Assembly: GCA_963805085.1 (NCBI GenBank) | Contig: CAWDTA010000004.1 | Coordinates: forward strand, 256,001 to 320,000 | Direction: 5' to 3' | Source: an uncultured Veillonellaceae bacterium | Lineage (GTDB): Bacteria; Bacillota; Negativicutes; JARBTT01 | Length of the DNA: 64,000 nt | In this document: positions 9,419 through 50,933 of the stretch, piece after piece | Layout of the letters: each line of letters begins with the position of its first letter | How positions within the stretch are numbered: position 1 is the first letter of the stretch | Made by a program: the position numbers and the translations under genes | The notes under the pieces: model-generated | Told to the model about the DNA's origin: nothing | Seen by the model: the letters and a program-made list of their open reading frames with translations, nothing else | The model's database searches: none

Positions 9419-9481
9419 AGGATTACCTCCATCTTCTCTTTAATCTTTAACATGGCATTATTACTCTTTAACTTTCTCTTT

Positions 9482-10282: not shown

Positions 10283-10315
10283 TTTACCTACTCCTTTACT
10301 CTCTATAACTTTTAA

Positions 10316-34470: not shown

Positions 34471-35370
34471 TCAGCCCTCCTCATTAGCCATCGCCACAAA
34501 AGCATCTTCCAGTGTCGGGGAAATTTCTTCTAACGAGAAAATATCAATTTCTTGTGCTGCAAGCGCGCTCCTCACTGCTAAAATTGCTTCTAGCGGGTCA
34601 TCCACAATCAAATGATATTTATCACCAAACGCATTCATATCTCGCAAATTGCAGTTTTGTAAATATTTTTTTATATCTTTACGATTGGTTTGCAATTCCA
34701 AAACTTTATATGGATACTGATCACGCAACCCCTGTGGTGACTGACACGATACAATCTTACCATTATGCATAAACGCAATTCTATTGCATAATTCAGCTTC
34801 ATCCATATAAGGGGTTGAAACAAACACCGTCATTCCTTCTTTGTTTAAACTATACAGCATCTGCCAAAACTCCCGCCTGGATACTGGATCTACCCCTGTT
34901 GTCGGTTCGTCGAGAAAAAATAGTTTAGGTCGATGCATCAGACCTGCTGCCAAGGCTAATTTTTGTTTCATACCACCTGACAAATTATCTGCCAAACGAT
35001 CTTTAAATGGCAACAAACTTGTAAAAGTTAAAATTTCATTAGCAAGCTTTTCCACTTGGTTTGGTACTGATCCATATAAAGCCCCCATTAGACGAATATT
35101 CTCAATCACTGTAAGATCCCCATACAAACTAAATTTTTGCGGTACATAACCAATGTACTGCTTGATTGTTTCCAAGGATTGATTGCCCATTACGATAATG
35201 CGTCCAGTATTTGCCGCCAAAATACCAGTAATCATACGAATTACGGTCGTTTTACCTGCCCCATCAGGCCCTACCAGTCCGAATATTTCCCCTTCCTTTA
35301 CGGTCAGTGAAATATGATCTACGGCAACTGTCTGACCAAACTGTTTGGTTACGCCTTGCAGCTGAATCAT
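34471..35370 (-). CDS. ABC-2 ATPase
   Basis: GPDGAGKTT, LSGGMKQK, LDEPTTGVDP. Confidence 0.93.
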   Translation of the reverse strand: MIQLQGVTKQFGQTVAVDHISLTVKEGEIFGLVGPDGAGKTTVIRMITGILAANTGRIIVMGNQSLETIKQYIGYVPQKFSLYGDLTVIENIRLMGALYGSVPNQVEKLANEILTFTSLLPFKDRLADNLSGGMKQKLALAAGLMHRPKLFFLDEPTTGVDPVSRREFWQMLYSLNKEGMTVFVSTPYMDEAELCNRIAFMHNGKIVSCQSPQGLRDQYPYKVLELQTNRKDIKKYLQNCNLRDMNAFGDKYHLIVDDPLEAILAVRSALAAQEIDIFSLEEISPTLEDAFVAMANEEG

Positions 35371-36341
35371 TTTATCACCACATCTGCTGGCATACCTGGT
35401 TTTAAAATGCCCTCTGCATTATCAATTTGTACTTTAACCGCAAAGACCAAATTAGCGCGTTCACGCTGGGTAATACTTTGGCGTGGCGTAAATTCAGCAT
35501 TTTGACTAATTTCTTTTATTGTTCCCATAAATACTTTATCCGGAAAAGAATCAATAACAACATCTGCCTGCTGGCCAACTTTGATTTGTCCAAGTTGTGT
35601 GGACGATATATGTACCTTAACCCAACAATCATTCATGTCACCAACTGTAGCAATCGCTGCTCCAGCATTTACATATTCACCATCTTCAAAATTTTTTGTC
35701 AGAACCAAACCAGCGAGTGGGCTAGCAATCACCGTATCATCAACCTGTGTATGGCTCGCTTCGACAATTGCTTTATTCCGCTCTACTTCTATTCTTTGCG
35801 CTTCAATTTTATCTGGGCGATTTCCTTCTTTCACTAAGGCTTCATTTTCCTTAGCTGAATCCAAGGAATGATAAGCTACCTCATAGCTAGAACGGGCATT
35901 GTCAAGCTGCTGGGTTGCAATCGCACCTTGGGCATATAAAGCTTGATACCGCGCTAAATCAGCTTCTGCTTTTTCAAAAACTGACTCTGCTGATCCAACC
36001 GCCGCACTTGCTTGGCTCATCTCTTGACTACGTGCGCCTTTTTCCAAATCTCTTAGTTCTGCCTGGGCTTTCGTTAAAGCGGCTTCATCACGGAGCAATT
36101 GTGCCTTTAAATCGGGTCTAGCGATATAAAGTACAACTTGTCCAGCTTGCAACGCATCGCCTTCTTTCATTTTGAGTTGTGTAATATAACCACTCACCTT
36201 AGGCGTAATATCGACTCTCGTCACTTCGATTGTTCCAGTAGCATTGATTCCTGTTGGCTCACGATTATATAATTTATAACCTGCCGCACCGATAGCGATA
36301 ACTAAAATAACGACTAGCACAATGATTTTCGATTTACTCAT
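35367..36341 (-). CDS. HlyD-family membrane fusion protein (YbhG-like)
   Basis: N-terminal TM, lipoyl halves, coiled coil, AEFTP, LKPGMPADV. Confidence 0.9.
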   Translation of the reverse strand: MSKSKIIVLVVILVIAIGAAGYKLYNREPTGINATGTIEVTRVDITPKVSGYITQLKMKEGDALQAGQVVLYIARPDLKAQLLRDEAALTKAQAELRDLEKGARSQEMSQASAAVGSAESVFEKAEADLARYQALYAQGAIATQQLDNARSSYEVAYHSLDSAKENEALVKEGNRPDKIEAQRIEVERNKAIVEASHTQVDDTVIASPLAGLVLTKNFEDGEYVNAGAAIATVGDMNDCWVKVHISSTQLGQIKVGQQADVVIDSFPDKVFMGTIKEISQNAEFTPRQSITQRERANLVFAVKVQIDNAEGILKPGMPADVVIK

Positions 36342-36936
36342 AATTAATCCTCCTCACGCCATTTAAATAGATATTCACTGCCTGGATGACATATTTTTCA
36401 TCATGATCGACATTGTCAACTAAAAATTCTTTGGTTATTGGTCGCGCAATAAAATAAAAATTCATAATTCCTGCCAATGAAATACTAGCATAGGTCGGGT
36501 CAAGATCAGAGTTAAAATAACCTTCTTTTACTCCATCGGTAAATGCTTGAGAAATAAACTTAAAAAACCGCGAAATATATTTTTCGACAATGATTTTTAA
36601 AGCAAACGTAGGGTTCGTCAATTCACTATGCATAAATCGCATCAAATATGGTTTTTTTTTATGAACTGATAATATCATTTTTGCATAATACTGAATTCGT
36701 TCGGGTGGGGTTGCTTCTAGTTTTTCAAAAGCCTCCACCAACGTATCTGCTGGTGAAAATAGCTCTTCTAATACCCCTAAATACAAGCCATCTTTTCCAC
36801 CAAAGTAATAAGAAATAAGTGCACTATTGACATTTGCGGCTTCTGCTAATTCCCGAATTGAAACACCTGCTAATCCTTTTTCCGCCAACAAAGGAATCGC
36901 TGCTTCAATTAATTTTGTGCGAGAATTTTTCTCCAA
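36334..36936 (-). CDS. TetR-family regulator (CecR-like)
   Basis: SIRELAEAANVNSALISYYFGGK. Confidence 0.92.
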   Translation of the reverse strand: MEKNSRTKLIEAAIPLLAEKGLAGVSIRELAEAANVNSALISYYFGGKDGLYLGVLEELFSPADTLVEAFEKLEATPPERIQYYAKMILSVHKKKPYLMRFMHSELTNPTFALKIIVEKYISRFFKFISQAFTDGVKEGYFNSDLDPTYASISLAGIMNFYFIARPITKEFLVDNVDHDEKYVIQAVNIYLNGVRRINYE

Positions 36937-36960
36937 ATTAACCCCTCCTCTTAACTTTAA

Positions 36961-37005
36961 TTAATCGATTGATTAAATTGTAATACTAATTTATGGAATA
37001 GTCTA
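36961..37005 (-). promoter_or_regulatory. Promoter and TetR operator
   Basis: TAGACT-N17-TACAAT followed by the near-palindrome TTAATCGATTGATTAA over the start site. Confidence 0.65.
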
Positions 37006-37095
37006 GACTTTTTTACTAAAATAAACAGCTCCATTTATAATCCATTACAAACGGAGCTGTTAGAAGTTTATATTATTTTTATAAAAGCAAGTATC

Positions 37096-38517
37096 CTACT
37101 CTTTACTTTTTGCCGGAAATGCATACATCATAGCAATCATAAGAATGATTGTTAATAAAATCGCTGTTGATTGCGCGTTAAGAATCCCCAATCCTCTACC
37201 AGCATTACCAAACTGCAATACCACCGTGGTAATAATCCCAGTAATAGCGCAAAGGAATGCCGCGGTTGTACTAGGTCTCTTAGAAAAAAGTCCAAACAAC
37301 ATTGGTGCCGTTAAGGAAACCGACATTAAAGAATAAAAAATAGATAACGCTGAAATTACATTCGGCAGTATAATCGCCATAACGACCCCAATGATTCCGG
37401 CTACAATAGTAACAATTCGACTACTTTTCAAAAGTTCTTCATCCGAAATATCTGGCTTGATAAAAGATTTATAGAGATCTTTAGTAAAAGAAGAAGTAAT
37501 CATATATAATACAGCATCTGCCGCACTGATTTCAGCCGAAAAAATAGCCGCTAGAGCTAGTGCCGATGCCCAAAAAGGCATACACTCTTTCATGACAATC
37601 GGCAATGCCAAATCACGCTCTGTCAAATTAGGCACGACTACTGAAGCTGCCATTCCCAAAATTACTGGAATCACGGAAAAAGCCAGCATAACAAGACCAC
37701 AAAGCAATGTACTAATCAAGACAGTTTTCTCATTTTTGGCACCATATACCTTGCCGATAAGCCCTGGAGAAATAAAAAAAGATGGTGTCAACATCAAAAA
37801 GAACCCCATAATCGTCGTTAATCCCACACCATCAGTGCTAAAATAACTAGTAGTTTTCACCGCATCACCTAGATTTATGGCAACCTGCGCTTCTAAACCA
37901 CCCCAACCACCAACAAAATTCAAGACAAACGGCACAGCAATAAAAAAGCCGACCAACTTTACGGTCGCTTCAATAACATTGACATAAGCTGCCGCTAACA
38001 GACCACCAGCACAAAAATATAATACCACGACAACTGCACCAATCAAAATCCCAACGGGTTTTGTTACACCTGCAACAACGGATAAAATCCAAGCAATCCC
38101 CATTAGCTGTCCAGCAAAAATCGCAATTGTACCAATGGCCATCATCAGCGAAATCAAACCACGAAAATTTCGATTATACCGAAAATCTAGGTAATCACCT
38201 AATGTATAAAAATTATGTTTTTTCGCCAATCGCCAAATAGCTGGGCCAACAAAAATGGCCAATATAAACGTCCCTATTGCTGATGCAATAATCCACCAAA
38301 TTGCTGATATTCCTAGTTGATAGCCTAGCCCAGCTACACCAACGGTAGAACCAGCTCCAATATTCGGTGCAACCAAAGTGATAAATAAAAGTATCGGGCC
38401 AAACTTTCTGCCCCCTACAAAAAAGTCATCTGCGCCTTTCACACGTTTTCTCATAACCATCCCAACAGCGATCAAAAACAATGCATAAAGCGCAATGACC
38501 CAAACATATCCATTCAT
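37096..38517 (-). CDS. Sodium:solute symporter family protein
   Basis: DFFVGGR, TLGDYLDFRY, about 13 TMs. Confidence 0.9.
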   Translation of the reverse strand: MNGYVWVIALYALFLIAVGMVMRKRVKGADDFFVGGRKFGPILLFITLVAPNIGAGSTVGVAGLGYQLGISAIWWIIASAIGTFILAIFVGPAIWRLAKKHNFYTLGDYLDFRYNRNFRGLISLMMAIGTIAIFAGQLMGIAWILSVVAGVTKPVGILIGAVVVVLYFCAGGLLAAAYVNVIEATVKLVGFFIAVPFVLNFVGGWGGLEAQVAINLGDAVKTTSYFSTDGVGLTTIMGFFLMLTPSFFISPGLIGKVYGAKNEKTVLISTLLCGLVMLAFSVIPVILGMAASVVVPNLTERDLALPIVMKECMPFWASALALAAIFSAEISAADAVLYMITSSFTKDLYKSFIKPDISDEELLKSSRIVTIVAGIIGVVMAIILPNVISALSIFYSLMSVSLTAPMLFGLFSKRPSTTAAFLCAITGIITTVVLQFGNAGRGLGILNAQSTAILLTIILMIAMMYAFPAKSKE

Positions 38518-38545
38518 TGCCTATTCCTCCCCTACGACAAAACGA

Positions 38546-39157
38546 CTACATCGTGATTAAACTTACTATCCCAAAGCTGGCAATAATAAAACCAGAAAAC
38601 TGATTTACATATTTAAGCTTTTTCGTATCAAAGCTTGCTCGAAGTGCATTTACCGTTCCACTTAATAGTAGCCACCAAAGCATCGAACCGAGAAAAACGC
38701 CAAAAACTAAGAATCCAGCGAGTGTATAGCTTTCCCCAGTCGTACCTATCCCGAGTCCGGCAAAAACCGCCGCAAAAGACATGATCGTCATCGGGTTCGT
38801 CAAGGTTAGGAAAAATGCTGAAGTATAAGCACCGAAAATGCCTTTACCACTCGTTTGCGCCGCTGTTTCCGCGGGAATTGACCGATATGTGGTATAGCCC
38901 AAATAAAGTAAAAACAAACCACCAAGAAAACGTAGATAAAATTGATGATCGAATAAAAAATCAGAAATAATCGTAACCCCAAACGCTGCGATGCAGCCAT
39001 ACATCGCATCAGCAGTTGCTGTTCCTAGCCCCGAAAGCACACCAGTGAACATGCCCTTTGCTAAAGTGCGCCGAATACATAGGACGCCAATTGGACCTAC
39101 TGGAGCCGCAATAGAAGATCCTAGAATTATTCCTTTCATAAAAAAGATCAATTCCAT
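38546..39157 (-). CDS. LysE/RhtB-family exporter
   Basis: IAAPVGP, LTLTNP. Confidence 0.9.
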   Translation of the reverse strand: MELIFFMKGIILGSSIAAPVGPIGVLCIRRTLAKGMFTGVLSGLGTATADAMYGCIAAFGVTIISDFLFDHQFYLRFLGGLFLLYLGYTTYRSIPAETAAQTSGKGIFGAYTSAFFLTLTNPMTIMSFAAVFAGLGIGTTGESYTLAGFLVFGVFLGSMLWWLLLSGTVNALRASFDTKKLKYVNQFSGFIIASFGIVSLITM

Positions 39158-39164
39158 CTTAAAA

Positions 39165-39623
39165 TTACCCTCTTTCAACTTTGATCGGTAATACTGGAGT
39201 TTCCTTAACCGTGGATAAAATGATCGTAGTCCGAGTTTTCATCCCTGATAAAGATTTAATTTTTTCACTTATTAAAAGTTCAAGATCACGAGTACCTGAA
39301 CAACGCACTTTAAGAATATAGTCTTCTTCACCTGCTATGTGATGACACTCTAATATTTCTGGCAGGTTATTTACCATAGTTAAAAACTCTTTTCTCTGCT
39401 CGGTTCGTTCTAATGTTACAGAAATTAAAGCAGCTAATCCACAGCCAACCTCGTCTGGATTGATTAATGCTGCATAACCTTTGATAATCCCCATTTCTTC
39501 CATCTTATGTACCCTATCAGCCGCAGCAGGAGCTGATAGCCCGAGAAGTGCTCCTAATTCGGCCCAACTTGTACGAGCCTTTTCCATAAGGTGTTTAATC
39601 GCTTTCAAATCGTTACTATTCAT
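39165..39623 (-). CDS. Lrp/AsnC-family regulator
   Basis: HTH plus ECHHIAGEEDY RAM domain. Confidence 0.93.
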   Translation of the reverse strand: MNSNDLKAIKHLMEKARTSWAELGALLGLSAPAAADRVHKMEEMGIIKGYAALINPDEVGCGLAALISVTLERTEQRKEFLTMVNNLPEILECHHIAGEEDYILKVRCSGTRDLELLISEKIKSLSGMKTRTTIILSTVKETPVLPIKVERG

Positions 39624-39719
39624 GTTAAATAACCACCTTTTGCAAAGTTATATACAAATAATACATTCGTTTTAAATCATTGTCAATATTTCTTTGTAAA
39701 ATAAAGTTAATTATAGAGA

Positions 39720-39790
39720 TAATAAAATCCGTACCAATCTGCTTCATACATTGCGTATTCCAGCGGATTTTGGTACGGATTTTTATTATC
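39720..39790. terminator. Long stem-loop after the aminotransferase gene
   Basis: AATAAAATCCGTACCAATCTGC...GCGGATTTTGGTACGGATTTTTATT. Confidence 0.7.
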
Positions 39791-39838
39791 TCATAACCAT
39801 TCTTGCCTCATTTAATAAACCGAATACTTCTTACATAG

Positions 39839-41032
39839 TTATCGGGTGCTATATTCCTTGATTGCTTTTGATAATCGCCTGATACCTTCACGGATTTTTT
39901 CTTCTGGCATATTGGAGTAATTTAACCGCAAGGTGTTTGTAACTCCACCATTAGGGAAAAATGAATCACCAGGAATAAACGCCACATTATTTTCTAAGCA
40001 ATCCTCTAATAATTGAATGGCCTTCATCTGTTTTGGAAGCTCTAGCCAAAGAAATAAACCTCCTTCGGGATGGGTAAAAGTCACACCCTCAGGCAATGTT
40101 GCTTGTAGCATTTCAATCATAACATCTCGCCGTGATCGGTATAACGCTACCAACTCCCCAATATGCGCTTCGAAATCGTATACGTCCATAAACTTAGCAA
40201 TCTCCATCTGACTTCTTATCGATGTACACAAATCTGCCCCTTGCTTTATTAGAATATATTTTTCAAGGATATCCGTATCAGCCGCTAGCCAGCCGATACG
40301 CAATCCCGGACAGAACGTTTTTGAAAAAGTACTCGTAAAAATGACCAGACCTTTTGTATCCATGGATTTTAAGGAAGGAAGTATCTTATTTTCAAACCGC
40401 AATTCGCCATAGGGATCATCCTCAATAACTGGGATTTCGTATTTACTTACCAGCCTCATAAACTCAATCCTACGTTCTAGAGACCAAGTTTTGCCTGTTG
40501 GGTTTTGAAAATCAGGTATTACATAAATTAGTTTTATTCTTTTTTGGCTAGTTAATACTTTTTCTAGCTCTTCGAGGATCATACCTTCATCATTCGTTTT
40601 TACGGCAATGAATTTAGGGGCATAAGCATTAAAAGCACTGATTGCTGCTAAATACGTGGGACTTTCACAAAGGACAATATCATCCTCATCTAAAAAAAGT
40701 TTACCAGAAAAATCCAACCCCTGCTGAGAACCGCAGGTAATTAAAATATGTTCCTTCCTGACAGTTGTTTGAAATTTCCGATTCATTCGCTCCGCTATTT
40801 TTTCTCTTAGCGGTTCATAGCCTTCCGTGGTTGAATATTGCAAAGCTTCATTGCCTTGCTCTTCTAAAACACTGACGGCAATTTTCTTCATCTTTTCTAC
40901 GGGAAATAGTTCCGGTGCCGGTAAACCACCGGCAAAGGATATCATTTCTTTTTTTTGCGTCAGCTTTAATATCTCGCGTATTTCAGATCTACGCAATAAA
41001 TTCATTCGTCTTGCAAAACTAATCGGCATCAT
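39839..41032 (-). CDS. PLP-dependent aminotransferase class I (LysN-like)
   Basis: ISFAGGLP, PDFQNPTG, EDDPY, STFSK.FCPGLRIGW. Confidence 0.92.
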   Translation of the reverse strand: MMPISFARRMNLLRRSEIREILKLTQKKEMISFAGGLPAPELFPVEKMKKIAVSVLEEQGNEALQYSTTEGYEPLREKIAERMNRKFQTTVRKEHILITCGSQQGLDFSGKLFLDEDDIVLCESPTYLAAISAFNAYAPKFIAVKTNDEGMILEELEKVLTSQKRIKLIYVIPDFQNPTGKTWSLERRIEFMRLVSKYEIPVIEDDPYGELRFENKILPSLKSMDTKGLVIFTSTFSKTFCPGLRIGWLAADTDILEKYILIKQGADLCTSIRSQMEIAKFMDVYDFEAHIGELVALYRSRRDVMIEMLQATLPEGVTFTHPEGGLFLWLELPKQMKAIQLLEDCLENNVAFIPGDSFFPNGGVTNTLRLNYSNMPEEKIREGIRRLSKAIKEYSTR

Positions 41033-41093
41033 TTGTCCACTCCTCAACTTCTTTTATATTACAGTTTTTTTATTTATATTAACTTGCAGGAAT

Positions 41094-41137
41094 TAAATTG
41101 TAAATATCCAATTTAATATAATTAAAATACCAATTTA
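41094..41137. promoter_or_regulatory. Putative MocR operator (one inverted plus two direct CCAATTT)
   Basis: AAATTG at 41095, CCAATTT at 41108 and 41130, between divergent genes. Confidence 0.55.
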
Positions 41138-41160
41138 TTAAATTTAGGAGAAAATCATAA

Positions 41161-42672
41161 ATGGATATTACCAAAATAATCATGGATCTACGCGTTACAT
41201 CCTCACAAAACGCGCCACTCTACCTACAGCTAGCCAATGGCTTAGCAACAAAAATTCAAAATTTCACACTTGCTATTGGTACTAAACTTCCCCCAGAAAG
41301 AGAGCTTGCAAAATTACTGAATGTAAGCCGTACCACAGTAATTAATGCATACCGTTTGCTAGAAGATCAAGGCTTGATCAGTACCAAAATTGGCAGCGGA
41401 TCCTATGTAAATGAAGTATCGCAAGCCACCCAACCAAACGGGGCGATGCCTTGGGAACAGCTCTTCACCCCACAATATAACTCACCCCTCTCTTCCATAT
41501 TGCGTACATTAATTGATCCCCATACGATTGATGAAACAATATCTTTTGCTGCTGGTATGCCCGATCCAACGTTTTATCCGCTTTCCATCATGGAAAAAAC
41601 ACTTAATTCTAGCAAATATCACTTAGCCGCGGCTGACTTTGGCTACATTTCAACGGAAGGCTATCTTCCTTTGAAGCAATCATTAGCCACTTGGCAAGCT
41701 GAATTTGGAATTCATGCCACCCCTGAACAATTTCTTATTGTCTCTGGATCACAACAAGGTCTATACCTAATCGTAAAAGCTTTTATTGCCCCCAGAGACT
41801 ACATTATTCTAGAATCACCTACTTATCTAGGTGCTATTCAAGCCTTCGAAAATTCTGGCGCTCACATTTTAACTTTACCACCATCGGACCAGCTTAATTT
41901 TGAGCTACTTGAGGACTACCTTATCCGCTATCGCCCCAAATTAATGTATACAATTCCTACATTTCAAAATCCAACAGGACGCATTATGTCACTACAAGAC
42001 CGCCAGAAGCTAATCCAATTGGCCGGAAAATATCGTCTGGTAATCGTCGAGGATGATCCTTACAGCTTGCTATATTACGAACAAGAACCACCCGCATCGT
42101 TAAAAAGCCTTGATACTTACGGTGGTGTTATCTCTATAGGTACATTTTCCAAAACCGTTTTTCCCGGACTACGTACAGGCTGGATCACTGCTGCTGAGCA
42201 AGTGATTGATCGTCTGGCACAAGAAAAGCAGCATATTGATTTGCATAGCAATAACGTATCACAAATCATTCTTCATATCTGTCTAGAAGAAGGCTATCTA
42301 GAGAATCATTTATCCTTAATTCGCTTAGAATATAAAAAACGTCGCGATGCTATGGTTCACGCAATCAGACGTTATTGTAATGAATATCTTGAATTTACAA
42401 TTCCAACAGGAGGCTTTTATATCTGGTGCAAAGTGAAAGCACCTATATCAGTTACAGAACTAATTCGTCAAGCAGCGGTTGTCGGTGTTACTTTTGTTCC
42501 TGGTATTGCTTTTTATACCAATGGAACACGCAGTAATGAAATACGTCTTTGCTTTGTTACTCACCATGAAGATTTAATTAGGGAAGGAATACGAAAACTA
42601 GGGAAAATCCTTACATCTGGTGTAGCCAATAGCCTACACTCATCTCGCATGGCAGGTCGCCCTATCATTTAA
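41161..42672 (+). CDS. MocR/GabR-family regulator
   Basis: GntR wHTH (LPPERELA...VSRTTV) plus aminotransferase domain. Confidence 0.93.
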   Translation: MDITKIIMDLRVTSSQNAPLYLQLANGLATKIQNFTLAIGTKLPPERELAKLLNVSRTTVINAYRLLEDQGLISTKIGSGSYVNEVSQATQPNGAMPWEQLFTPQYNSPLSSILRTLIDPHTIDETISFAAGMPDPTFYPLSIMEKTLNSSKYHLAAADFGYISTEGYLPLKQSLATWQAEFGIHATPEQFLIVSGSQQGLYLIVKAFIAPRDYIILESPTYLGAIQAFENSGAHILTLPPSDQLNFELLEDYLIRYRPKLMYTIPTFQNPTGRIMSLQDRQKLIQLAGKYRLVIVEDDPYSLLYYEQEPPASLKSLDTYGGVISIGTFSKTVFPGLRTGWITAAEQVIDRLAQEKQHIDLHSNNVSQIILHICLEEGYLENHLSLIRLEYKKRRDAMVHAIRRYCNEYLEFTIPTGGFYIWCKVKAPISVTELIRQAAVVGVTFVPGIAFYTNGTRSNEIRLCFVTHHEDLIREGIRKLGKILTSGVANSLHSSRMAGRPII

Positions 42673-42695
42673 AGTTATGGGAAATTCGTTCGAAT

Positions 42696-42743
42696 AAAAA
42701 GAGCAACCGGGTACGAATTCATTTCGTACCCGGTTGCTCTTTT
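42696..42743. terminator. Bidirectional intrinsic terminator
   Basis: AAAAAGAGCAACCGGGTACGAA...TTCGTACCCGGTTGCTCTTTT. Confidence 0.9.
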
Positions 42744-42887
42744 AATCTAACAATAATTTAGTATTATAATCTTATATAAAATTATTTTGCAAAAATACTT
42801 TAGCAGCGGCTTGGATATACCCCTCCTGCTAACAATAAAAACCTTCGAAATTCAGCATAATTACGGGTCTGATTAAGCTGACCTAGA

Positions 42888-43304
42888 TCAAGATGTCATA
42901 GTGGTACTAGCAGCCACCGTAGGCCATGTAACATTATCTAAATCTGTAATACTAGATGGTAAATCTCTTAATGCCTGTCTATATGTTGCCCATGCAGATT
43001 TAAGAGTATCTGTCATAACTACATCTGATAATTGCGTCCAATCACATGCTGATAATAAAGCATCTCTTTTTGTTCTTATATTTGCTAATTTTTCTTCATC
43101 TGTTAATGTAGTTATTGCAGGGGCTGTAAATATCGTACCATCATAAGTCCAACCAACTTCTGGTTGTGTTGTTAATGCTGTTATATCTACAAATGTTACA
43201 TCATTTTGATTAAATTTTTGTGCATACAATTTTGTTAAAGTTAAATCATCTTCCATAATCCAGTGTACTGAATTGTTTAATATTTGTGCGTATTTATATG
43301 ACAT
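42888..43304 (-). CDS. Phage tail-fibre assembly chaperone-like protein
   Basis: PEVGWTYDG.IFTAP and IRTKRDALLSACDWTQLSD...WATYRQALRDLP...WP. Confidence 0.85.
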   Translation of the reverse strand: MSYKYAQILNNSVHWIMEDDLTLTKLYAQKFNQNDVTFVDITALTTQPEVGWTYDGTIFTAPAITTLTDEEKLANIRTKRDALLSACDWTQLSDVVMTDTLKSAWATYRQALRDLPSSITDLDNVTWPTVAASTTMTS

Positions 43305-43450
43305 TATAAATCATCCTCCTATATATGTGTTATTAAAATTTGTTTAGAATAAGCTCAAATGTTTTATTTAACCAACCAGAAATACCATAATATATTGTTA
43401 TAGTATTAAGTTAATTGTTACATTATAAGTTTATCTATATTTATAAAATA

Positions 43451-44716
43451 TCACCATTGAATTAATACGAATCCTGCAGCTCCAGAGCCACCAGTAGCGT
43501 TATAACTACTACCTCCATAACCACTACCTCCTCCAGCTCCATATCCTGAACCTGCAACGCCAGTTGATGAACCTGTAACTCCACCACTATGACCACCACA
43601 GCCAAAAATACTATCTCCACCATTGCCTATGTAATAGTCTGTATTACCGCTACCACCACTCATACCACCAAAACCGCCAGCTGAGCCACCTGAACTAGAA
43701 GATCCCCCTCCACCTCCAGCACACGAAAGAAGTGTACCAACTGATGATGAACCTCCTGAACATCCAGCTGAACCGCCTGCTCCTACCGTAATAGTATAAG
43801 ATGCACCTGCAGTTACATTTAATGTTTTACCTATAACAGCGGCTGCACCGCCACCACTGCCACCATAATAGTAATTCATATTACCATCAGTATCAGTACC
43901 GGTATCATATCCACTATGACCACCACCACCGCCACCTGACATGTTTACATATACAGTAGTTACTCCAGCAGGAACTGTAAAAGTTCCACTTGATGTAAAC
44001 ATCTGCTGACCATGTATACCACTAGCAAGTAATTGTGCAGCTGTATATCCACCAAGTGTAGTAGCCGCCGTAGCTGTTGCTGCATTACCCGTACAAGTGG
44101 CTGCAGTATTCGCACTAGTCACATCTACAGCAATAGACACACCTGCCGAACCGTCAAATGTTGCACTTCCCGTGGCATCACCAGTTAAACTAATCGTTCT
44201 GGCAGTAGCTAGTTTAGTAGCTGTTGCCGCATTACCGGAGCAGCTATCCGCATTGGTCACATCTACAGTAATAGCAACATCCGCTGAACCGTCAAATGTT
44301 GTACTGCCTGTAGCATCACCAGAAAGCGAGATTGTCCGAGCTGTTGTCAATGACGTAGCAGTAGCCGCATTACCTGTTATATCTACTGCTAAACTTGTCG
44401 GAGTTGTCCCTGCTGTAACCCTTCCTTTTGCGTCAACGGTAACAGATGTATATGTACCTTCGGTTACCCCACTGTCAGCTAATGTAGCTGGTATAGAAAT
44501 ATCCGCACTACCATCAAATGAGATTGCCGTTCCTACAACATCACCTGTAATTGCGATATTCCTAGCAGTAGCCAACTTAGTAGCCGTTGTCGCTGAATCC
44601 GCAGTTACAGCAGTTGCAGCATCAACAATTTTGTCTTCCTTTAACGCTCTAAAATTCTCTCTGATTGTTTCTGTTGATACAGTAATATCTACTGGTGAAT
44701 CTGAATTGTAAGACAT
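43451..44716 (-). CDS. Phage tail-fibre-like protein with glycine-rich C-terminal domain
   Basis: Three ATKLATAR.I...GD..G...FDGSA repeats, GTYTSVTVDAKGRVTAG, and GQQMFTSSGTFTVPAGVT...GGGGG...GFVLIQW. Confidence 0.82.
   Translation of the reverse strand: MSYNSDSPVDITVSTETIRENFRALKEDKIVDAATAVTADSATTATKLATARNIAITGDVVGTAISFDGSADISIPATLADSGVTEGTYTSVTVDAKGRVTAGTTPTSLAVDITGNAATATSLTTARTISLSGDATGSTTFDGSADVAITVDVTNADSCSGNAATATKLATARTISLTGDATGSATFDGSAGVSIAVDVTSANTAATCTGNAATATAATTLGGYTAAQLLASGIHGQQMFTSSGTFTVPAGVTTVYVNMSGGGGGGHSGYDTGTDTDGNMNYYYGGSGGGAAAVIGKTLNVTAGASYTITVGAGGSAGCSGGSSSVGTLLSCAGGGGGSSSSGGSAGGFGGMSGGSGNTDYYIGNGGDSIFGCGGHSGGVTGSSTGVAGSGYGAGGGSGYGGSSYNATGGSGAAGFVLIQW
44090..44590 (-). repeat. 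Tail-fibre shaft repeats (3 copies, ~46 aa)
   Basis: TKLATARNIAITGDVVG..FDGSA / SLTTARTISLSGDATG..FDGSA / TKLATARTISLTGDATG..FDGSA. Confidence 0.8.
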
Positions 44717-44876
44717 GTAAATTCCTCCCTAAATTAAAATATTATTTTGAAACTTGATATAGCCAAGGATCTCTTATTCATAATTGTGTTTATCCTGTAT
44801 ATCCCCCTTCACTTATATACATTCTTGCAGTTGCAACTTTTAAACTATAAATCTAAAAAAGTCGTCAAAAATTAGC

Positions 44877-44977
44877 AAAAATGGCGTCTGCATCAACAAT
44901 GAGATAGACGCCATTTTTCATTAAAACAATCCAAAAATGCTGGTTTTCCTTATTTTTAAGTGAAAACCAGCATTTTC
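44877..44977. terminator. Two tandem intrinsic terminators between the pectin cluster and the tail-fibre cassette
   Basis: AAAAATGGCGTCT...AGACGCCATTTTT and AAAATGCTGGTTTTC...GAAAACCAGCATTTT. Confidence 0.8.
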
Positions 44978-45021
44978 ATTTTACTAATTATCATAAATAA
45001 AAAACTGTATGATGCAAAACT

Positions 45022-45951
45022 TTAATAACTATCAGCATTTGCTTTTTCACCAGCAATGCAGCATGGCATTAGGCTTATATTAAGGACTTGAACCGCTATA
45101 AAATATTTGTCTAAATATTTTTTAAGCGGTAAATTTGACTTACTAATACCTTCAGTAACAAGTCCAGCAACTTTTAATGAACCTACACGATTGAGATGCG
45201 TGTTATCGATTTTCACACCATTCTGCGTATTCTCTGCATTGTATACGGCATGTAATTTGCCGGCCCCATCATTGCCTAATTGGTTGTAAAGGGCGACGGT
45301 TGCTTTGTTTAAATCAATCAAAGTAACATTCTGTTTTCTAGCGAGTGCTCTCATGGAATTATCATAAGAGATAGTATTTTCACCTTCAACTTCAGAATAA
45401 TGACTGTCTATAACTTTACCGTTACTATCGAAAAGTCTTCTTGCAATCGGCGTAACGAGAACTGGAATTGCACCTTCTTCTCTTGCCAATTTGATATAAT
45501 ATTCATATAGATAGTACTGATAGGAACCTTTTAGCGTTTCATCACCGAGTGGCGAAGCATGACGGTAAAGCTTACTTGTGTCCGTTAAGTTTGCGATGTC
45601 TTGCTTTTCGTCATTATGGCCGAACTGGATGAAGAGATAGTCACCATTTTTCAGATTATCTTTCAGTTCCTGATAGTTATTTTCATAAATAAAGCTTCTT
45701 GCGCTTCTGCCAGAAATAGCTAAATTATTGACTTTAACTTCATTTATGAAGTACTTGTCTATATTCTCACCCCAACCGGAACGAGCTACATCATATTTTG
45801 CTGTATCATCACCGTATTTGCATACTGTGGAATCACCAACTAAATAAATGGTAGTAACTGATGCCTTATTGTTTACGGCTGCAAAAACGGAACCTGCAAA
45901 TAAACAGAATACTACACTGGTTAATACTAACTTTAAGCCTATATATTTCAT
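45022..45951 (-). CDS. Rhamnogalacturonan/pectin acetylesterase (SGNH, CE12-like), secreted
   Basis: GDST, GWG, SGRS, QFGHND, DNTH. Confidence 0.9.
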   Translation of the reverse strand: MKYIGLKLVLTSVVFCLFAGSVFAAVNNKASVTTIYLVGDSTVCKYGDDTAKYDVARSGWGENIDKYFINEVKVNNLAISGRSARSFIYENNYQELKDNLKNGDYLFIQFGHNDEKQDIANLTDTSKLYRHASPLGDETLKGSYQYYLYEYYIKLAREEGAIPVLVTPIARRLFDSNGKVIDSHYSEVEGENTISYDNSMRALARKQNVTLIDLNKATVALYNQLGNDGAGKLHAVYNAENTQNGVKIDNTHLNRVGSLKVAGLVTEGISKSNLPLKKYLDKYFIAVQVLNISLMPCCIAGEKANADSY

Positions 45952-46019
45952 ATGCATCTTTCCTCTTCATATATATTCTTATAATATTTTCCTCTAGGCG
46001 ACCTATAAGGTCAGTCCAT

Positions 46020-47198
46020 TTATATGACACTTTTAGCCTTAATAAAAACTTTCGCTTTTAATAATTTCTTAACCATACTATCTGGATTCCAGTCTCCCAA
46101 ATATGTTTTTGGGGTGCATTCTTTAGCCTGTTCTTCGGTAAGTGTTCTTCTATTGGTACTCGTTAGCGCCCCAGGTCCTGTGCTGGCGTATTCAAACAGA
46201 CTATTATCTTCTGGGAAATGATCACCATATTTATTCATCATATGATCCCAACCAATTTCTGAAATATGTGCACCCATTTCACAGTTTTTAAATATTGCAC
46301 TAGAATTTACCGGACGTTGTTCAAAAGATGGATGCCATGGTCTACCGAGCTTTACCGAACCTTCTTCTTTAATATTACTTGTCAACTTACAATCAAGAAA
46401 CAGATATCCCTTATCCGGTATCAGCGTACTCGGAGCTGTAATATAACCTTTCGTGTCACCTTCTCTATCCAATGATTTAATCTCGCATTTTTCATATACT
46501 GCTGTCGCCGCGCCAAAAATAAAGTCTATATCTCCTTCAATATAACACTGATAATAATACTGTCTATTTTTATTGGCAAACAGCGTATCCTGGTTGCCTA
46601 GAAATCTGCAATGAACAAATGTACTCCGATCCGCTTCATTTTTAATTGCGAATGCCTGCCGGCTATCCATCGTCTGCATATTTGCCACTTCATCAAAGTC
46701 ATTGTTAAACGTAATATTTATCGCGGAAAACCCCGTAGCCGTATATTCTACCGTTACCGATGCACAATCCATACGATACATTTTCTTTCCATCGCCACCA
46801 TCTTCAGGTCTTACAACTGTACCTTCGGCATCATTATAAACAATCTGTGTGTTCTCTGCATTTTCGCCAACCAATATAATGTTGGGTTTTGTAATCTTTA
46901 CTTTTTCTCTATATGTACCACTCGTAACCAAAATTTTTACTGGTTTCTCATTTTTTTCAGCAACGGCATCAATTGCAGCACCTATAGTCTTATAGATACG
47001 GTTACCCTTGACTTTTTCTCCATCTTTTCCAGTAAAATTACAATCTACAATCATATTAAACGGTTCTGCTTTTATTAGCTGTTCAATCGGATCTTGATCC
47101 TTTGCCGCTGCTTGCACAATGTTGATATTTAAAGCTGTACCGATAAACGAAGTAATTGCCGTACAAATCAGAACTGACAGCATCTTTTTTATATTCAT
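46020..47198 (-). CDS. Pectin methylesterase (CE8), secreted
   Basis: GTYRE, QAFA, QDTL, DFIFG, LGRPW. Confidence 0.93.
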   Translation of the reverse strand: MNIKKMLSVLICTAITSFIGTALNINIVQAAAKDQDPIEQLIKAEPFNMIVDCNFTGKDGEKVKGNRIYKTIGAAIDAVAEKNEKPVKILVTSGTYREKVKITKPNIILVGENAENTQIVYNDAEGTVVRPEDGGDGKKMYRMDCASVTVEYTATGFSAINITFNNDFDEVANMQTMDSRQAFAIKNEADRSTFVHCRFLGNQDTLFANKNRQYYYQCYIEGDIDFIFGAATAVYEKCEIKSLDREGDTKGYITAPSTLIPDKGYLFLDCKLTSNIKEEGSVKLGRPWHPSFEQRPVNSSAIFKNCEMGAHISEIGWDHMMNKYGDHFPEDNSLFEYASTGPGALTSTNRRTLTEEQAKECTPKTYLGDWNPDSMVKKLLKAKVFIKAKSVI

Positions 47199-47457
47199 CT
47201 TTAATCCCTCATTTATGAAATAAAATATCCCAATTGTTTACTTTAAAATTAAGGCTGTATCAACCTATTTTTAAAGAATATTGTAAATATCTTCTGCTGC
47301 AATAAATTATGCATAATAGGCACCATTTATGTAAAATTATTTTCTTCGAAAATTACGATTCTAGAGAAACGATACCTAATTACAATTGTTTTATTGTTGT
47401 TTTATAGAAATCAATATATATGAAACAAAGACTGCATATTACAAAACCTAATGGCTA

Positions 47458-49170
47458 TTAGCCTTTATTTTTATCATTCTGAAAAACAAGGTTTTCAAAA
47501 AAACCATTTTTCAAATAATTGATTTTCATTGGTTTTGCATTGTAGAACATAATATTTGAAAAATATAAATTTTCGTGAAATCCATTTTGCGTTCCCTGTA
47601 CTTCAATCGCTGCTCCACCAGTGGTGTCTACAGTACAGTTTTCAATCCGGATATTTTTGAATAGGCCTGGAACTTTAGACTTTTCATATTCAACCACCGC
47701 ATTGGGATCAGAATATCCTGAAGTAAAGATAAATGCTTGATTTTTAATATTTTTCAGTGCATTATCACGGAAGATGATATTTCTTGCCCCGCCGCCGATT
47801 TGTGGCGCAGTTTTTGCCCGAAAACCGACATCGGTATTTTCAATTACATTATCTTCCGCGAGGATATTTTCAATCCAGGCTGCGGTATGGCTGCCTGTTA
47901 CCACTGCACCATGCCCATGATAAAAATAATTATTAAAGATCCAGATATTTTTAGTTGAAGGATCTTTTTGACCTAAAGCACCTAAGCCAGCAGCAAAGTT
48001 TACACAGTCATCGCCTGTATCAAAATAATTATTGATTACAGTCAATCCATTGCCATGGATAAATTCAATGCCATCTCCATTATTGCAGTCAAACGTATGG
48101 AACGTAACATCATTCACCGTTACATCATCACACTTAATATTTACGATTGTATGATTTGCTGGATTACTTACTGTGATTGCACCATAATAAACTTCTTTTA
48201 CTCCTCGCAAGGTAATGAGATTAGACCGCCTTGGATATGCAGATTTAAACGTTTGACCAGCCTGCATCAAATTTTCAACTTGTGCTTTCGCCAAGATTCC
48301 AATATTCAATACATGATTTTGATCCATCACTCCAGCCTTATCTATGGTATTATGTGCATATAGATAAGCTGTTTGCTCGCTATTTTTCTGCCACCCATTT
48401 CCATCAATCGTTCCTTCACCGACAATACGGATTTTTTCAACTACTGGCTCTTTTTCAGTGGGGCCAGCATTGATTAAGGCAAAGAAGCGTTCATCACTAG
48501 AATAAGGATACATTTTAAAATGATAGTCATAATCCTTAGCATTTTCTGAGCCAAGCAAAGTTGCGCCTTTGGCTACTTCCAAAGTCATATTGCTCTTGAG
48601 CCAAATTTGACCTGTCTTAAATACACCAGCTGGAACCAACACTTTATCGCCAGGTGTACAAGCATCAATTGCTTTCTGGATTGCTTTAGTATTTATTGTT
48701 GTGCCATCGCCGACAGCTCCATAAGCTTGGATGTTAAATATTCTAGGAATTGCTGTCGTTTTTTGCTCTATGACGTTGCTGTCGAGCGATTCGTTACCTT
48801 TTGCATCGACGGCCCGTACGGTAAATTTATATTTTGTTGAAGGCTCTAGCCCCGTGATAATATAAGAATGTTTGATCGTCATTTGCGCTTTGGGATTTTC
48901 CGCATAAAATTTATCTATACTTGGTTTCGCAACAGACACTTTATCTGATTGAACATTACCAAGCAGTTTACCATTCATATAAATATGATAATTCACTATG
49001 CCAGTCTGGTTGTCCGTTTTTTCCCAAATTAGGGTGATGCTCTGCTCATCTACAGCCAATGCTGGAACCTTTAAGTGCTGCGGTGCTGATATTGTCGCAG
49101 CCAGTGCCATTGAACTCATTAATAAACCCAAGAGAAGTACCAATAAAATTTGTATTGCATATTTTTTCAT
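47458..49170 (-). CDS. Exo-poly-alpha-galacturonosidase (FN3 plus GH28, PehX-like)
   Basis: Signal peptide, FN3 domain, NGDG, GDD, GHG, RAKT. Confidence 0.9.
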   Translation of the reverse strand: MKKYAIQILLVLLLGLLMSSMALAATISAPQHLKVPALAVDEQSITLIWEKTDNQTGIVNYHIYMNGKLLGNVQSDKVSVAKPSIDKFYAENPKAQMTIKHSYIITGLEPSTKYKFTVRAVDAKGNESLDSNVIEQKTTAIPRIFNIQAYGAVGDGTTINTKAIQKAIDACTPGDKVLVPAGVFKTGQIWLKSNMTLEVAKGATLLGSENAKDYDYHFKMYPYSSDERFFALINAGPTEKEPVVEKIRIVGEGTIDGNGWQKNSEQTAYLYAHNTIDKAGVMDQNHVLNIGILAKAQVENLMQAGQTFKSAYPRRSNLITLRGVKEVYYGAITVSNPANHTIVNIKCDDVTVNDVTFHTFDCNNGDGIEFIHGNGLTVINNYFDTGDDCVNFAAGLGALGQKDPSTKNIWIFNNYFYHGHGAVVTGSHTAAWIENILAEDNVIENTDVGFRAKTAPQIGGGARNIIFRDNALKNIKNQAFIFTSGYSDPNAVVEYEKSKVPGLFKNIRIENCTVDTTGGAAIEVQGTQNGFHENLYFSNIMFYNAKPMKINYLKNGFFENLVFQNDKNKG

Positions 49171-49223
49171 CGTTATTTTCACTCCTTCAATATCGCCTGT
49201 CAACTTAAACGCAAGCTATTCCA

Positions 49224-50633
49224 TCAGAAGAAGAATTCAAACTGTGAACGTAACCATTTTTCACTTGCTTTATCCGTTCCGGTAAGATCCTTCTTCTGCA
49301 ACCAACGAGTTGTCCAAAGTACATTTTTAGTTGGAACGTATTTGTAAATCAACTGCCAACCTCTAGCACCCACTGCATTATCTTTAATATCAAAAGTTGA
49401 TTTGATATAAGCAGCAGCTTCTAAATGTACATAATCAAGTTCTGTTGACCAAGAATGAGGAATCACTTTATTAGCTTTCCGATATTCTAGCGAGAAATTA
49501 TAGGCTACATTATTTTCATCCCGATCTGATCTTGCATAGTCTGCACCAAAATTCAGATTTTTGGCAATATCGCGATCAAAGGCAAGTTCCCAAATATTAG
49601 TATCTTTATAACTGGCAACTGTATTCTTCCCTACATCTGTATAATTGCTACCTTTACTCATTGTATGCCAGAGACCTGCATAGAGATTTGTTTTTTCATC
49701 CAATGGATATTTCATATCTAACTGTACATAATTGATACCAACATTTTTTGGATTCACATAAGTTTCGTTGACGCCACGATCATCCTTGTCACCCGCGCGT
49801 AGTGGCACGCCTGTTGTATTACGAGTTGTCGAGTTATAATCCGGTTTAGCATAGGTAAAATTGAATTTTGTTTTATTGCCAAAGCTATAAACGGCACCTG
49901 TATAATATTCATTCATAACCATCCCATTTATGGCTCCGGCTTTGTCACGACCAACCTTTAAGGTTCCGTTGCCGACTGGTCCATAGAAATACAATCTTGA
50001 CATATCAAATTGACCATTTGTATTTTCCTGACCGCCTCTATCTTGCCCATCACGATCTCTAGCACCTAACAAACGAATCAGGCCATTCCACCCACCGCCA
50101 ATCGCTGTAGTTCCTGTCAATTCATAATAATATGATGTGTCTTTTACTCCCGTCGCTGTTGTATCACCTTTAGAATCACTATCTGTTTTATGATCATAAC
50201 GCACTCTGATATTCCCACTCCATTTGATTCCATCCGTTTTAGGTACTGCTGGGGTAGTTGCCACCGGCTCAGCTACTGCTGGTGCCGGAACGCTAACACC
50301 TGGAATCCGAACATTGAGTTGCACTAACTCTTCCTTAAATTCCTTTTCTAATTGTTCAATTTCTACCTTGCTTGCTTGATCCGCTTTATCCATATTAAAC
50401 ATTGCTTTTGCCGTTAACACTGCCATCTCATAGCGCGTTGCTGGTTTGTCACTGCGAAAATCACCATCAACATATCCATCAATTAATCCAGCATGTACAA
50501 GTTTTTCAATCGATTGATAGCCCCAATGTGTAGATGGAACTGTACCAAAAGGATTATCAGACGCTGCAAAAGCAGCATTTTGCATACTAAAAATAAATGA
50601 TGTGGCTAACCCTAAAATAAGACCTTTTTTCAT
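49224..50633 (-). CDS. SLH-domain outer-membrane porin (OmpM paralogue)
   Basis: Signal peptide, SLH (HWGY...GLIDGY.DG.F...ATRYEMA), short coiled coil, beta-barrel ending RSQFEFFF. Confidence 0.85.
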   Translation of the reverse strand: MKKGLILGLATSFIFSMQNAAFAASDNPFGTVPSTHWGYQSIEKLVHAGLIDGYVDGDFRSDKPATRYEMAVLTAKAMFNMDKADQASKVEIEQLEKEFKEELVQLNVRIPGVSVPAPAVAEPVATTPAVPKTDGIKWSGNIRVRYDHKTDSDSKGDTTATGVKDTSYYYELTGTTAIGGGWNGLIRLLGARDRDGQDRGGQENTNGQFDMSRLYFYGPVGNGTLKVGRDKAGAINGMVMNEYYTGAVYSFGNKTKFNFTYAKPDYNSTTRNTTGVPLRAGDKDDRGVNETYVNPKNVGINYVQLDMKYPLDEKTNLYAGLWHTMSKGSNYTDVGKNTVASYKDTNIWELAFDRDIAKNLNFGADYARSDRDENNVAYNFSLEYRKANKVIPHSWSTELDYVHLEAAAYIKSTFDIKDNAVGARGWQLIYKYVPTKNVLWTTRWLQKKDLTGTDKASEKWLRSQFEFFF

Positions 50634-50933
50634 TTTTTTGTCCCCTCTCCCATAATAACACTTCTTTTCTAAGTGATAATTAACGAACAATTATAATATT
50701 CCGACTAAACAAAAAATTCTGACATTAGTAACCTCTCCCATTTGCCCTACTTCTAACGCTTAATTCATCTTAGTTCACCCCATTGACTTAGTTAATTCAA
50801 TTAATTAATTTAATGATATAATAATTATATATTTTCCTGTCGTTCACCTTCCATATTTGAGTTTTTTTATGTATTTTCGTTCGACACTTCTTGACGATTT
50901 TCTAAATAATATTCCAATTCATTCGATTTAGGC

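Follow-up and report, generated by a model that had tools for sequence, protein, structure and literature searches.

Results

A tail-fibre and chaperone cassette between host genes

The DNA analysed here is a stretch of 64,000 nucleotides (the window) from an uncultured Veillonellaceae bacterium (assembly GCA_963805085.1, contig CAWDTA010000004.1, positions 256,001 to 320,000), in which a MocR gene and a GDSL esterase gene flank a cassette of two phage-type genes on the minus strand. A tail fibre of 421 amino acids (aa; 43451-44716) is followed, 146 nucleotides (nt) past its stop codon, by a chaperone of 138 aa (42888-43304), and the ribosome-binding sites of the two open reading frames (ORFs), GGGAGG and AGGAGG, can be read directly from the sequence. 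An earlier account made from the letters alone (the sequence-only reading) had proposed an intact fibre ORF and an intact chaperone ORF, each with a strong ribosome-binding site; PHROG and Pfam matches bear out both identities at these positions. The upper limit that it gave, 44830, spans the promoter and leader described below, beyond the fibre ORF. The two genes are probably co-transcribed.

The cassette had also been described as fenced by terminators, tandem upstream and bidirectional downstream, and three strong hairpins were indeed found by folding energy. Downstream, the hairpin at 42697-42743 folds on both strands (-40.4 kcal/mol on the minus and -38.9 kcal/mol on the plus strand; z -11.2 and -11.5) and closes both the fibre-chaperone unit and the convergent MocR gene. 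Upstream lie a terminator-like hairpin at 44877-44918 (minus strand, -20.0 kcal/mol, z -5.0), which heads the repeated unit described below and would insulate the cassette from upstream transcription, and a second hairpin at 44933-44977 (minus strand, -24.2 kcal/mol, z -7.3). A simple promoter and terminator scan missed all three hairpins and returned no sigma-70 promoter before the fibre gene.

No tail cluster or prophage surrounds the fibre gene in the window, and this copy sits in a host intergenic region. None of the 57 other window ORFs matched a phage family in Pfam, only metabolic, transport and regulatory families, so the earlier claim that there is no prophage around the cassette holds. 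The cassette is a real, intact, stand-alone tail-fibre unit among host metabolic genes.

The fibre and chaperone proteins

The fibre falls into three parts: a conserved N-terminal module, MSYNS..P.D....IRENFRALKEDKIVDA (residues 1-35; 44612-44716), a shaft with three repeats of the form ATKLATARxIxLTGDATGSxxFDGSAD (residues 41-224; 44045-44596) and a glycine-rich tip, predicted to bind receptors (residues 225-421; 43454-44044). At E ≤ 0.01 the protein matched 22 PHROG families (best 4e-37), 16 of them tail families, four of unknown function and two of head and packaging, with phrog_7389 (8e-33), phrog_863 (1e-32) and phrog_11011 (2e-21) as the shaft-type matches. Shaft repeats of this kind are typical of tail fibres, and 34 phage records matched the fibre; the 12 matches listed of these 34 all fall within residues 47-155, over features that are annotated as tail fibre, tail protein or hypothetical protein, or are unannotated. 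Pfam Gly_rich_2 scored 23.7 bits, slightly under its cut-off of 24.3.

A model of the tip was built on a 10-row alignment (predicted local distance difference test, pLDDT, 79.7; predicted template modelling score, pTM, 0.79) and compared with known structures. It matched the cyanophage Pam3 fibre 7ypx (Foldseek E 4.6e-7; VIA Z 19.2, root-mean-square deviation 2.8 over 182 residues), the Bxb1 tail-tip chain 9d93 (VIA Z 12.6) and the ALK glycine-rich domain (Z about 7). Because the model superposes on the Pam3 fibre and the Bxb1 tail tip, the tip can be assigned, as a predicted structure, to the virion-type receptor-binding domains.

The chaperone carries the PF16778 Phage_tail_APC domain in residues 74-129 (77 bits against a cut-off of 26.6, E 1e-21) and matched phrog_8716 and phrog_4912, both at 6e-20; NCBIfam gave no match for either protein. 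Above the PF16778 cut-off it is the sole copy in its own genome, and a tblastn search of the whole assembly returned no second chaperone and one fibre relative, on contig C3. A BLAST search of ten neighbouring loci of relatives also found no second chaperone, and a search across the relatives' genome contigs gave distant relatives only. Inside an open frame of 6415 aa, C3:233812-233919 weakly resembles PF16778 (17 bits, below the cut-off). Across 88 loci with a chaperone relative, this tip adjoins the chaperone only in the orthologous cassette of a 106-kb metagenome contig (L059, described below). A complex prediction with three fibre tips and one chaperone scored 0.00, an outcome that speaks neither for nor against binding.

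A repeated promoter and leader element precedes the fibre gene

The sequence upstream of the fibre gene matched six further places in the only same-genus genome compared (G001, 84% complete), by which it was recognised as a repeat. The element takes up about 130 nt before the fibre ATG and consists of a promoter-like two-box motif, GTTTAAA-N14-GAATGTA (44818-44845), and a structured 5' leader, the putative 5' untranslated region (44717-44811), that contains a stem-loop (44754-44805) as well as the ribosome-binding site GGGAGG, all on the minus strand. With nhmmer, 23 copies were found in the bacterium's own genome, 14 of which were training copies, and every copy ends at or shortly before a gene start (examples are C2:1770807-1770946, C2:1776582-1776726 and C5:42928-43074); copies in the loci of relatives and viruses include those in L014, L017, L018, L023, L139 and L140. 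Hairpins related to the one at 44877-44918 head at least four other copies of the element, and a GGCGTyTA..CGCC hairpin could be aligned in the copies before genes of 290, 342, 331 and 295 aa.

In an alignment of 32 copies from eight genomes (A1), the columns run in the order GTTTAAA-N14-GAATGTA, conserved block, ribosome-binding site, ATG. The strict two-box motif had 15 matches in the genome, 14 of these 15 before genes of the element family; among the matches listed from a second motif scan, perfect copies are also found at C3:293263 and C2:122231. The motif is kept in other genera. The leader stem-loop pairs columns 44-51 with 95-102 and 53-57 with 86-90, and 92.8% of the stem cells are paired, against 36-45% with slid partners. 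The covariation score of the stem was 0.307, compared with 0.05-0.11, and none of 500 shuffles reached 0.307; RNAalifold independently gave the same helices. In the cassette's own copy, 11 of the 13 consensus pairs form (read by eye from its row, FIBRE_own), and as a single sequence this leader folds unexceptionally (z 0.25).

Rfam gave no leader match at E ≤ 1. The sole Rfam hit overlapping the leader, the yeast snoRNA RF01441 (44805-44916, plus strand, E 0.28, 24.9 bits against a gathering threshold of 60), is a chance match on the opposite strand, and the other Rfam hits in the region fall on the terminator hairpins. A blastn search with the leader against 50,697 phage records found no match. 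A covariance model of the element was positive in 12 of 41 genomes of the class, with 19 hits in the bacterium's own genome (G000), eight in G001, seven in G034, six each in G027 and G031, five in G004, three each in G006 and G010, two partial ones in G039 and one each in G019 (weak), G038 and G040; the element is also present in two viral contigs. With 19-23 copies in its own genome, it is a new cis-regulatory element that has no Rfam counterpart.

Because the ORF of a lysis cassette on contig C3 (see below) starts 5-25 nt after GAATGTA, the two boxes are best taken as a promoter and the block behind them as transcribed; the conserved boxes thus probably have promoter activity, and as read they are not sigma-A-like. 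SigD, considered for a GCCGATAT-like block, was rejected: the block lies in the transcribed stem, and the flagellin promoter differs. Assignments to SigK, SigE, SigF, SigG, SigH, sigma-54 and sigma-A were tried by eye and none was adopted.

Genes behind the element include fibres, enzymes and lysis genes

In its own genome, the element precedes three other fibre-like genes, four CE2_N/fn3 proteins, and GH53, GH51, GH30, GH43, two PL9-like, CE4 esterase and C1 peptidase genes; as judged by eye from the N-termini, GH43 alone among the assigned family genes has a signal peptide. Leader-borne enzyme loci include C2:1887993-1895777, C5:37507-46744 and C2:477889-480165, and an Amidase_3 gene, accompanied by two small ORFs, separates leader units at C2:1774741-1776218. 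Enzymes were seen behind the element in this genome only, while the cargo in other genera and in viral contigs is fibre-like or structural-like. In those genera the element precedes fibres with the same N-terminus as the cassette fibre, tail-collar proteins and phrog_3545-type proteins, often near endolysins. It stands directly before same-N-terminus fibres twice each in G027 and G031 and once each in G006 and G038, and also in a 67.5-kb viral contig. In the two viral contigs the element follows holin/endolysin genes, and behind it are encoded proteins of phrog_3545 and phrog_10059 and a fibre of 273 aa with the same N-terminus; the relatives of the unit in L017, L018, L139 and L140 lie in phage contexts. 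In phages of this bacterial class, such units are placed behind the lysis genes.

The boxes are also linked to lysis on the bacterium's own chromosome. On contig C3, a lysis cassette made up of a small membrane-anchored ORF and an amidase begins 5-25 nt after perfect boxes, which here lack the long leader, and boxes with one mismatch precede a cassette of a small ORF and an endolysin in G027. Pfam gave no match for the small ORFs before the amidases, and an XhlA-like or holin identity is unsupported.

Some first codons recur with the element. The GH51 protein (C2:1893267) starts MSYNQDLSAD, compared with MSYNQDLPAD in a stand-alone fibre of G006 (L023), and two short remnant ORFs start MVYNQDLS (C2:1890987) and MAYNSRIDL (C5:43075). 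To judge from these N-termini, the leader seems to have carried the opening codons of a fibre gene along when it moved.

A small phage-type sigma factor is encoded among the leader genes

One of the genes among the leader units encodes P0121, a sigma-70-family protein of 168 aa with regions 2 and 4 (C2:1891172-1891678; L035:7172-7678), and the boxes occur both upstream of its gene and at the 3' end. It is preceded by a remnant ORF of 66 aa starting MVYNQDLS. At eight loci a small phage-type sigma gene ends exactly at the leader start: in the own genome, in G001, five times in G034 (contigs C14, C15, C28, C1 and C21) and in the viral contig L139 (5617-5976), the sigma type being phrog_1740/351. 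P0121 and the L139 protein match the same phage sigma PHROG, phrog_1740. A paralogue of P0121 with 189 aa (C2:1808953-1809522) lies upstream of the comF-flgM-flgK-fliW-csrA-hag region. Matches to P0121 at E<1e-30 were found in nine of the 11 other leader-positive genomes as against five of the 29 leader-negative ones, a comparison among kin genomes and so not an independent test. From this arrangement, a small phage-type sigma factor, either P0121 or its paralogue, is the candidate reader of the promoter.

The boxes bring to mind the promoters of the TcdR group of sigma factors. According to PMC4031146, these are TTTACA (-35) and GTTATA or GTATAT (-10), compared with GTTTAAA and GAATGTAT here, a resemblance only. 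The same paper names an SRQ motif in region 4.2 as a marker of the group (group 5; PMC4031146). Region 4.2 of P0121 reads GVTPQAIFNLRNRGLARL and is without this motif, in which the candidate differs from the TcdR group.

A shared N-terminal module links the fibre to a headless tail cluster

The sequence-only reading had seen no obvious baseplate anchor in the N-terminus of about 30 aa, a view that has to be revised, as this stretch is a conserved module common to ten other fibres. The module, MSYNS.LP.D...IRENFRALKED.IV.A, occurs in 11 fibres, three encoded directly after a J-like protein (on contig C3 of the own genome, in G006 and in G031) and eight stand-alone, the cassette fibre included; a twelfth fibre with the module is found in a viral contig. 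Residues 1-33 of the cassette fibre align with the C3 fibre (MSYNS..IRENxRALKEDxIVDA), the C-termini of the two being unrelated, and these two fibres are the only proteins of the genome that contain the motif R[ED]N.xA.K[ED]. Because the module is conserved in fibres encoded directly after a J-like protein, the N-terminus is a putative attachment domain.

It had further been suggested that the genome be searched for paralogues sharing this N-terminus and for tail loci. Such a search yielded the C3 paralogue within a headless, lambda-like tail cluster (C3:273554-297778; L001, L002 and L003), and did not yield sheath or baseplate-J families. The cluster encodes a regulator, a tail tube protein (PF18906), two M-like proteins, an L-like and a K-like (NlpC/P60) protein and a J-like protein of 1647 aa followed by the fibre of 438 aa; a protein of 92 aa is encoded after the fibre, and two DUF6734 genes and an amidase are also present. 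No head gene is present in it, and capsid, portal, TerL, sheath and baseplate-J families had no match in the 83%-complete assembly. The same cluster, again with host flanks, occurs in G006, G031 and G040, from three other families (loci L019+L046, L047+L048 and L049+L050), with components of mostly 64-88% and in a few cases 33-45% aa identity, and J-like proteins of at least 68% identity are found in five of 40 other genomes. By its gene content the C3 cluster looks like an F-type tailocin-like element, a candidate for the Negativicutes; no paper turned up in a full-text literature search that combined tailocin with Negativicutes.

The cassette site and selection in relatives

Contig C88 of G001 is collinear with the window on both sides of the cassette at 88-90% nt identity. 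At its junction about 27 nt separate the MocR stop codon from the GDSL gene's terminator; the 2.26-kb segment 42673-44933 has no counterpart there. The bidirectional hairpin at 42697-42743 is part of this inserted segment, and the empty site of G001 is without it. Comparison of the G001 and window sequences, by reading, revealed no direct repeat or target-site duplication at the insertion junctions. The metagenome contig L059, in turn, is collinear at 91-93% nt identity and carries the cassette at the same site, with 288 extra bases beside it and a chaperone orthologue that is 94% identical.

Between the window and L059, the ratio of non-synonymous to synonymous substitution rates (dN/dS) of the fibre was 0.39 (49.3 non-synonymous and 43.7 synonymous substitutions; 911:333 non-synonymous to synonymous sites), and that of the tip 0.37 (44.3 and 38.7), with only ten changes in the N-terminus and shaft. 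The counts place the fibre under purifying selection. Eight flanking genes had dN/dS of 0.06-0.36 and dS from 0.03 to 0.98; across 34574-50731, dS thus spreads about 30-fold, from 0.03 in the GDSL and chaperone genes to 0.98 in an aminotransferase gene, a sign of a recombination mosaic between lineages.

All coding-sequence indels relative to L059 are in frame (30, 3, 3 and 12 nt, including a 10-aa shaft indel), as are those in peat metatranscriptome contigs of run X1 (12, 9 and 363 nt). One peat contig joins 44198 to 44562, an in-frame skip of 363 nt in which shaft repeats are lost. Shaft length and repeat number of the fibre vary between strains, judging from these alignments. Among public runs, the best share of the stretch's sampled words was 0.16, and the contigs obtained are short (151-486 nt, 90-99% likeness), so that start site, strand and expression level are not readable from them. 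One RNA contig ends at 44799, and one from a probable DNA run reaches 44844, a weak hint of a start site from one study.

Discussion

A fibre unit that may act in trans

We favour, at a probability of roughly 0.45, the reading that the cassette is a phage-derived, self-contained fibre unit, co-regulated with lysis, that supplies an alternative side fibre in trans. In our reading the unit has come to rest between host genes, where selection keeps it, and it forms part of a regulon to which lysis genes also belong. Such a unit would run from an insulating hairpin through an alternative-sigma promoter, a leader of about 95 nt, a ribosome-binding site, the fibre and the chaperone to a terminator. 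A small phage-type sigma factor, P0121 or the 189-aa paralogue, would switch on all units of the family, among them the membrane-protein and amidase lysis cassette of the C3 cluster, and the same boxes before that cassette would put the fibre and the cluster's lysis genes under common control. The chaperone would fold the glycine-rich tip of a trimeric fibre, and the fibre would dock through its N-terminal ~35 residues on the tail tip to which the fibre of the cluster itself is attached. The result would be a particle with a second receptor specificity, released by lysis. A spare fibre for a tailocin or prophage elsewhere was among the functions first proposed for this locus, and the headless C3 tail, the shared N-terminus and the promoter of the lysis genes favour it, although five of the 12 leader-positive genomes are without the cluster.

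Several observations weigh against this interpretation. The five genomes just mentioned (G004, G010, G019, G027 and G038) have no J-like protein at E ≤ 1e-10, four J-like-positive genomes have no leader, and in G027 a leader-driven fibre lies beside a contractile-tail cluster instead. Docking on the tail and particle production are themselves presumed. The C3 cluster is rearranged: its M-like gene is duplicated, it has two tape-measure-like ORFs, and a DDE transposase lies within it, so that it may be unable to form particles. No promoter boxes were seen before the C3 structural genes, either among the motif rows listed or on reading the sequence, and in the own genome the element also precedes enzymes, which do not belong to a tail. 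With the assembly 83% complete, another phage could be the true partner of the fibre. The cassette is absent from G001, the chaperone has a dN/dS of 0.73 relative to L059 (from 11 substitutions only), and the hint of expression comes from short contigs of one metatranscriptome that possibly contains DNA.

Alternative explanations

The enzyme cargo raises the alternative that the fibre is not mounted on a tail at all, leaves the cell upon lysis and binds plant or neighbour-cell polysaccharide as a free carbohydrate-binding protein. The same leader stands before GH53, GH51, GH30, PL9-like, CE4, C1-peptidase and CE2_N/fn3 genes that by eye are without a signal peptide, an Amidase_3 gene lies between leader units (C2:1774741), and leader-driven fibres occur in genomes without a J-like cluster. 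However, the N-terminal module, being the same as in the after-J fibres, points to attachment to a virion, the tip fold matches virion fibres, and the enzymes are confined to this one genome, so that we hold a free fibre to be unlikely. A different objection is that the cassette could be a young prophage remnant without present function, the end piece of a phage of this family, left over or recombined into the chromosome and not yet decayed. In viral contigs and prophages such units do occupy the lysis end, and the missing cassette in G001, the lack of a complete prophage in the assembly and the chaperone dN/dS of 0.73 would suit a remnant. The sequence-only reading had named absence from close relatives, neutral dN/dS and decayed phage genes in the flanks as marks of one; only the first was seen, in the one same-genus genome, while L059 retains the cassette and no decayed phage DNA adjoins it. 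Two lineages that differ by about 8% of their nt both have the unit intact, neutrality would predict about 68:25 non-synonymous to synonymous changes in the fibre where 49:44 were observed, indels are in frame only, and promoter, leader, ribosome-binding sites and terminators are all intact. A functionless remnant is accordingly a distinctly unlikely outcome in our estimate.

The module shared by phage-borne and chromosomal fibres, together with a promoter that appears to depend on a phage-type sigma factor of which one is also encoded in a viral contig, would allow for a decoy, in which the sigma factor of an infecting or induced phage of the same family turns on the cassette and the fibre competes for the attachment site, leaving progeny with a fibre of the wrong specificity. 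Against this exclusion role, the genome has its own candidate sigma factor with a promoter in front, which makes an infecting phage unnecessary for expression, and a decoy would not need a working chaperone or a tip under purifying selection. We rate it as improbable. Least credible, and in our view very improbable, is a spore-surface or exosporium fibre made in the mother cell, an option raised at the outset that found no support. The missing signal peptide and the glycine-rich tip would fit it, and the co-regulated amidases could, as an idea only, act like mother-cell lysins, but none of the 23 downstream genes is recognisable as a coat or sporulation gene, and the element occurs behind endolysins in viral contigs. 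To our knowledge, the promoter boxes are unlike the consensus sequences of SigK, SigE, SigF and SigG.

A broader reading, which we consider doubtful, is a lysis-coupled "release regulon" under phage-sigma control, in which one promoter and one structured leader have, in this genus, been copied before plant-cell-wall enzymes without signal peptides (GH53, GH51, GH30, PL9-like, CE4), proteins resembling carbohydrate-binding modules, and several fibres. If it were true, the lysis of a sub-population would export polysaccharide-degrading enzymes along with tail-like particles and lectin-like fibres, and programmed lysis would be a route of public-goods secretion in a diderm Firmicute. A known parallel is the TcdR group, in which cargo without a signal peptide is released by holin-like proteins.

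Comparison with known systems

The gene order resembles that of lambda Stf/Tfa, as well as P2 H/G and Mu S/U, in which a shaft-repeat fibre is followed by a small chaperone gene, and the shaft repeats are 40-42% identical to P2-like phiCTX fibres. As stf follows J in lambda, a paralogous fibre follows the J-like gene here and in two other genomes. Unlike Stf/Tfa, the cassette is an isolated pair flanked by host genes and equipped with a promoter, a leader and terminators of its own, and its tip is a glycine-rich domain of the Pam3/Bxb1 type. F-type tailocins (F-pyocins, monocin) share with the C3 element a siphovirus-like tail with a side fibre, lysis genes and host flanks. The F2 pyocin cluster has two sets of fibre and helper genes, with the side fibres attached to a central fibre (PMC13455828), whereas the second set described here lies on another contig with its own promoter, and the host is a diderm Firmicute.

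Recognition and lysis genes at separate loci are likewise a feature of the domesticated phage-like gene transfer agent RcGTA, which needs recognition genes at separate, co-regulated loci, these recognition loci evolving fastest (PMC5026251). Unlike in RcGTA, no head or packaging genes were found here, the regulator is of sigma type and not GafA/CckA, and co-regulation is deduced from the shared promoter. The second fibre set of the F2 pyocin and the separate loci of RcGTA are precedents that fit a second fibre supplied in trans.

Two further comparisons concern the regulation of the unit. Like the morons of phages, which are units of promoter, gene and terminator, the cassette is an independent unit bounded by terminators, with relatives that, in prophages and viral contigs, are placed among or after the late genes. 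It differs in that its promoter is not sigma-A-like and recurs, with a structured leader of about 95 nt, before unrelated genes; in addition, its cargo is a virion-type fibre and not a lysogenic-conversion gene, and no prophage surrounds this copy. PBSX of Bacillus subtilis is a defective phage element with heads and with fibre genes in its operon, whose late operon ends in xhlA-xhlB-xlyA and is served by the sigma-like Xpf. The likeness lies in late or lysis genes under a small, phage sigma-like factor, while the small ORF before the amidase here is without a Pfam match and its relation to XhlA is unsupported.

Which targets a phage or tailocin can reach is determined by its fibre-chaperone pairs. 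In this genome such a pair is kept insulated and separately promoted, far from tail genes, under purifying selection and probably on the switch that serves a lysis cassette. Should the fibre be mounted in trans, a domesticated tail would gain specificities by capturing small phage units, in parallel to the multilocus RcGTA but in a diderm Firmicute. The element is also useful in itself, as a candidate promoter for a small sigma factor joined to a covarying leader stem-loop that lacks an Rfam counterpart, with a regulon of about 20 genes.

Other genes adjoining the leader element

A recurrent ORF of 74-107 aa starting MYRTYRTTGDTIMAEEV adjoins leader units at C2:1774025-1774300, C5:20231-20554 and C2:480569-480793; the C2:1774025 copy had no family match in Pfam or NCBIfam. 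In a 20-kb locus of G004 (L015, C7:1653001-1673000), in which no phage structural gene was seen, positions 9288-11341 hold three tandem tail-collar fibre genes (159, 269 and 197 aa) with one copy of the leader, and this trio adjoins a Doc-like toxin gene.

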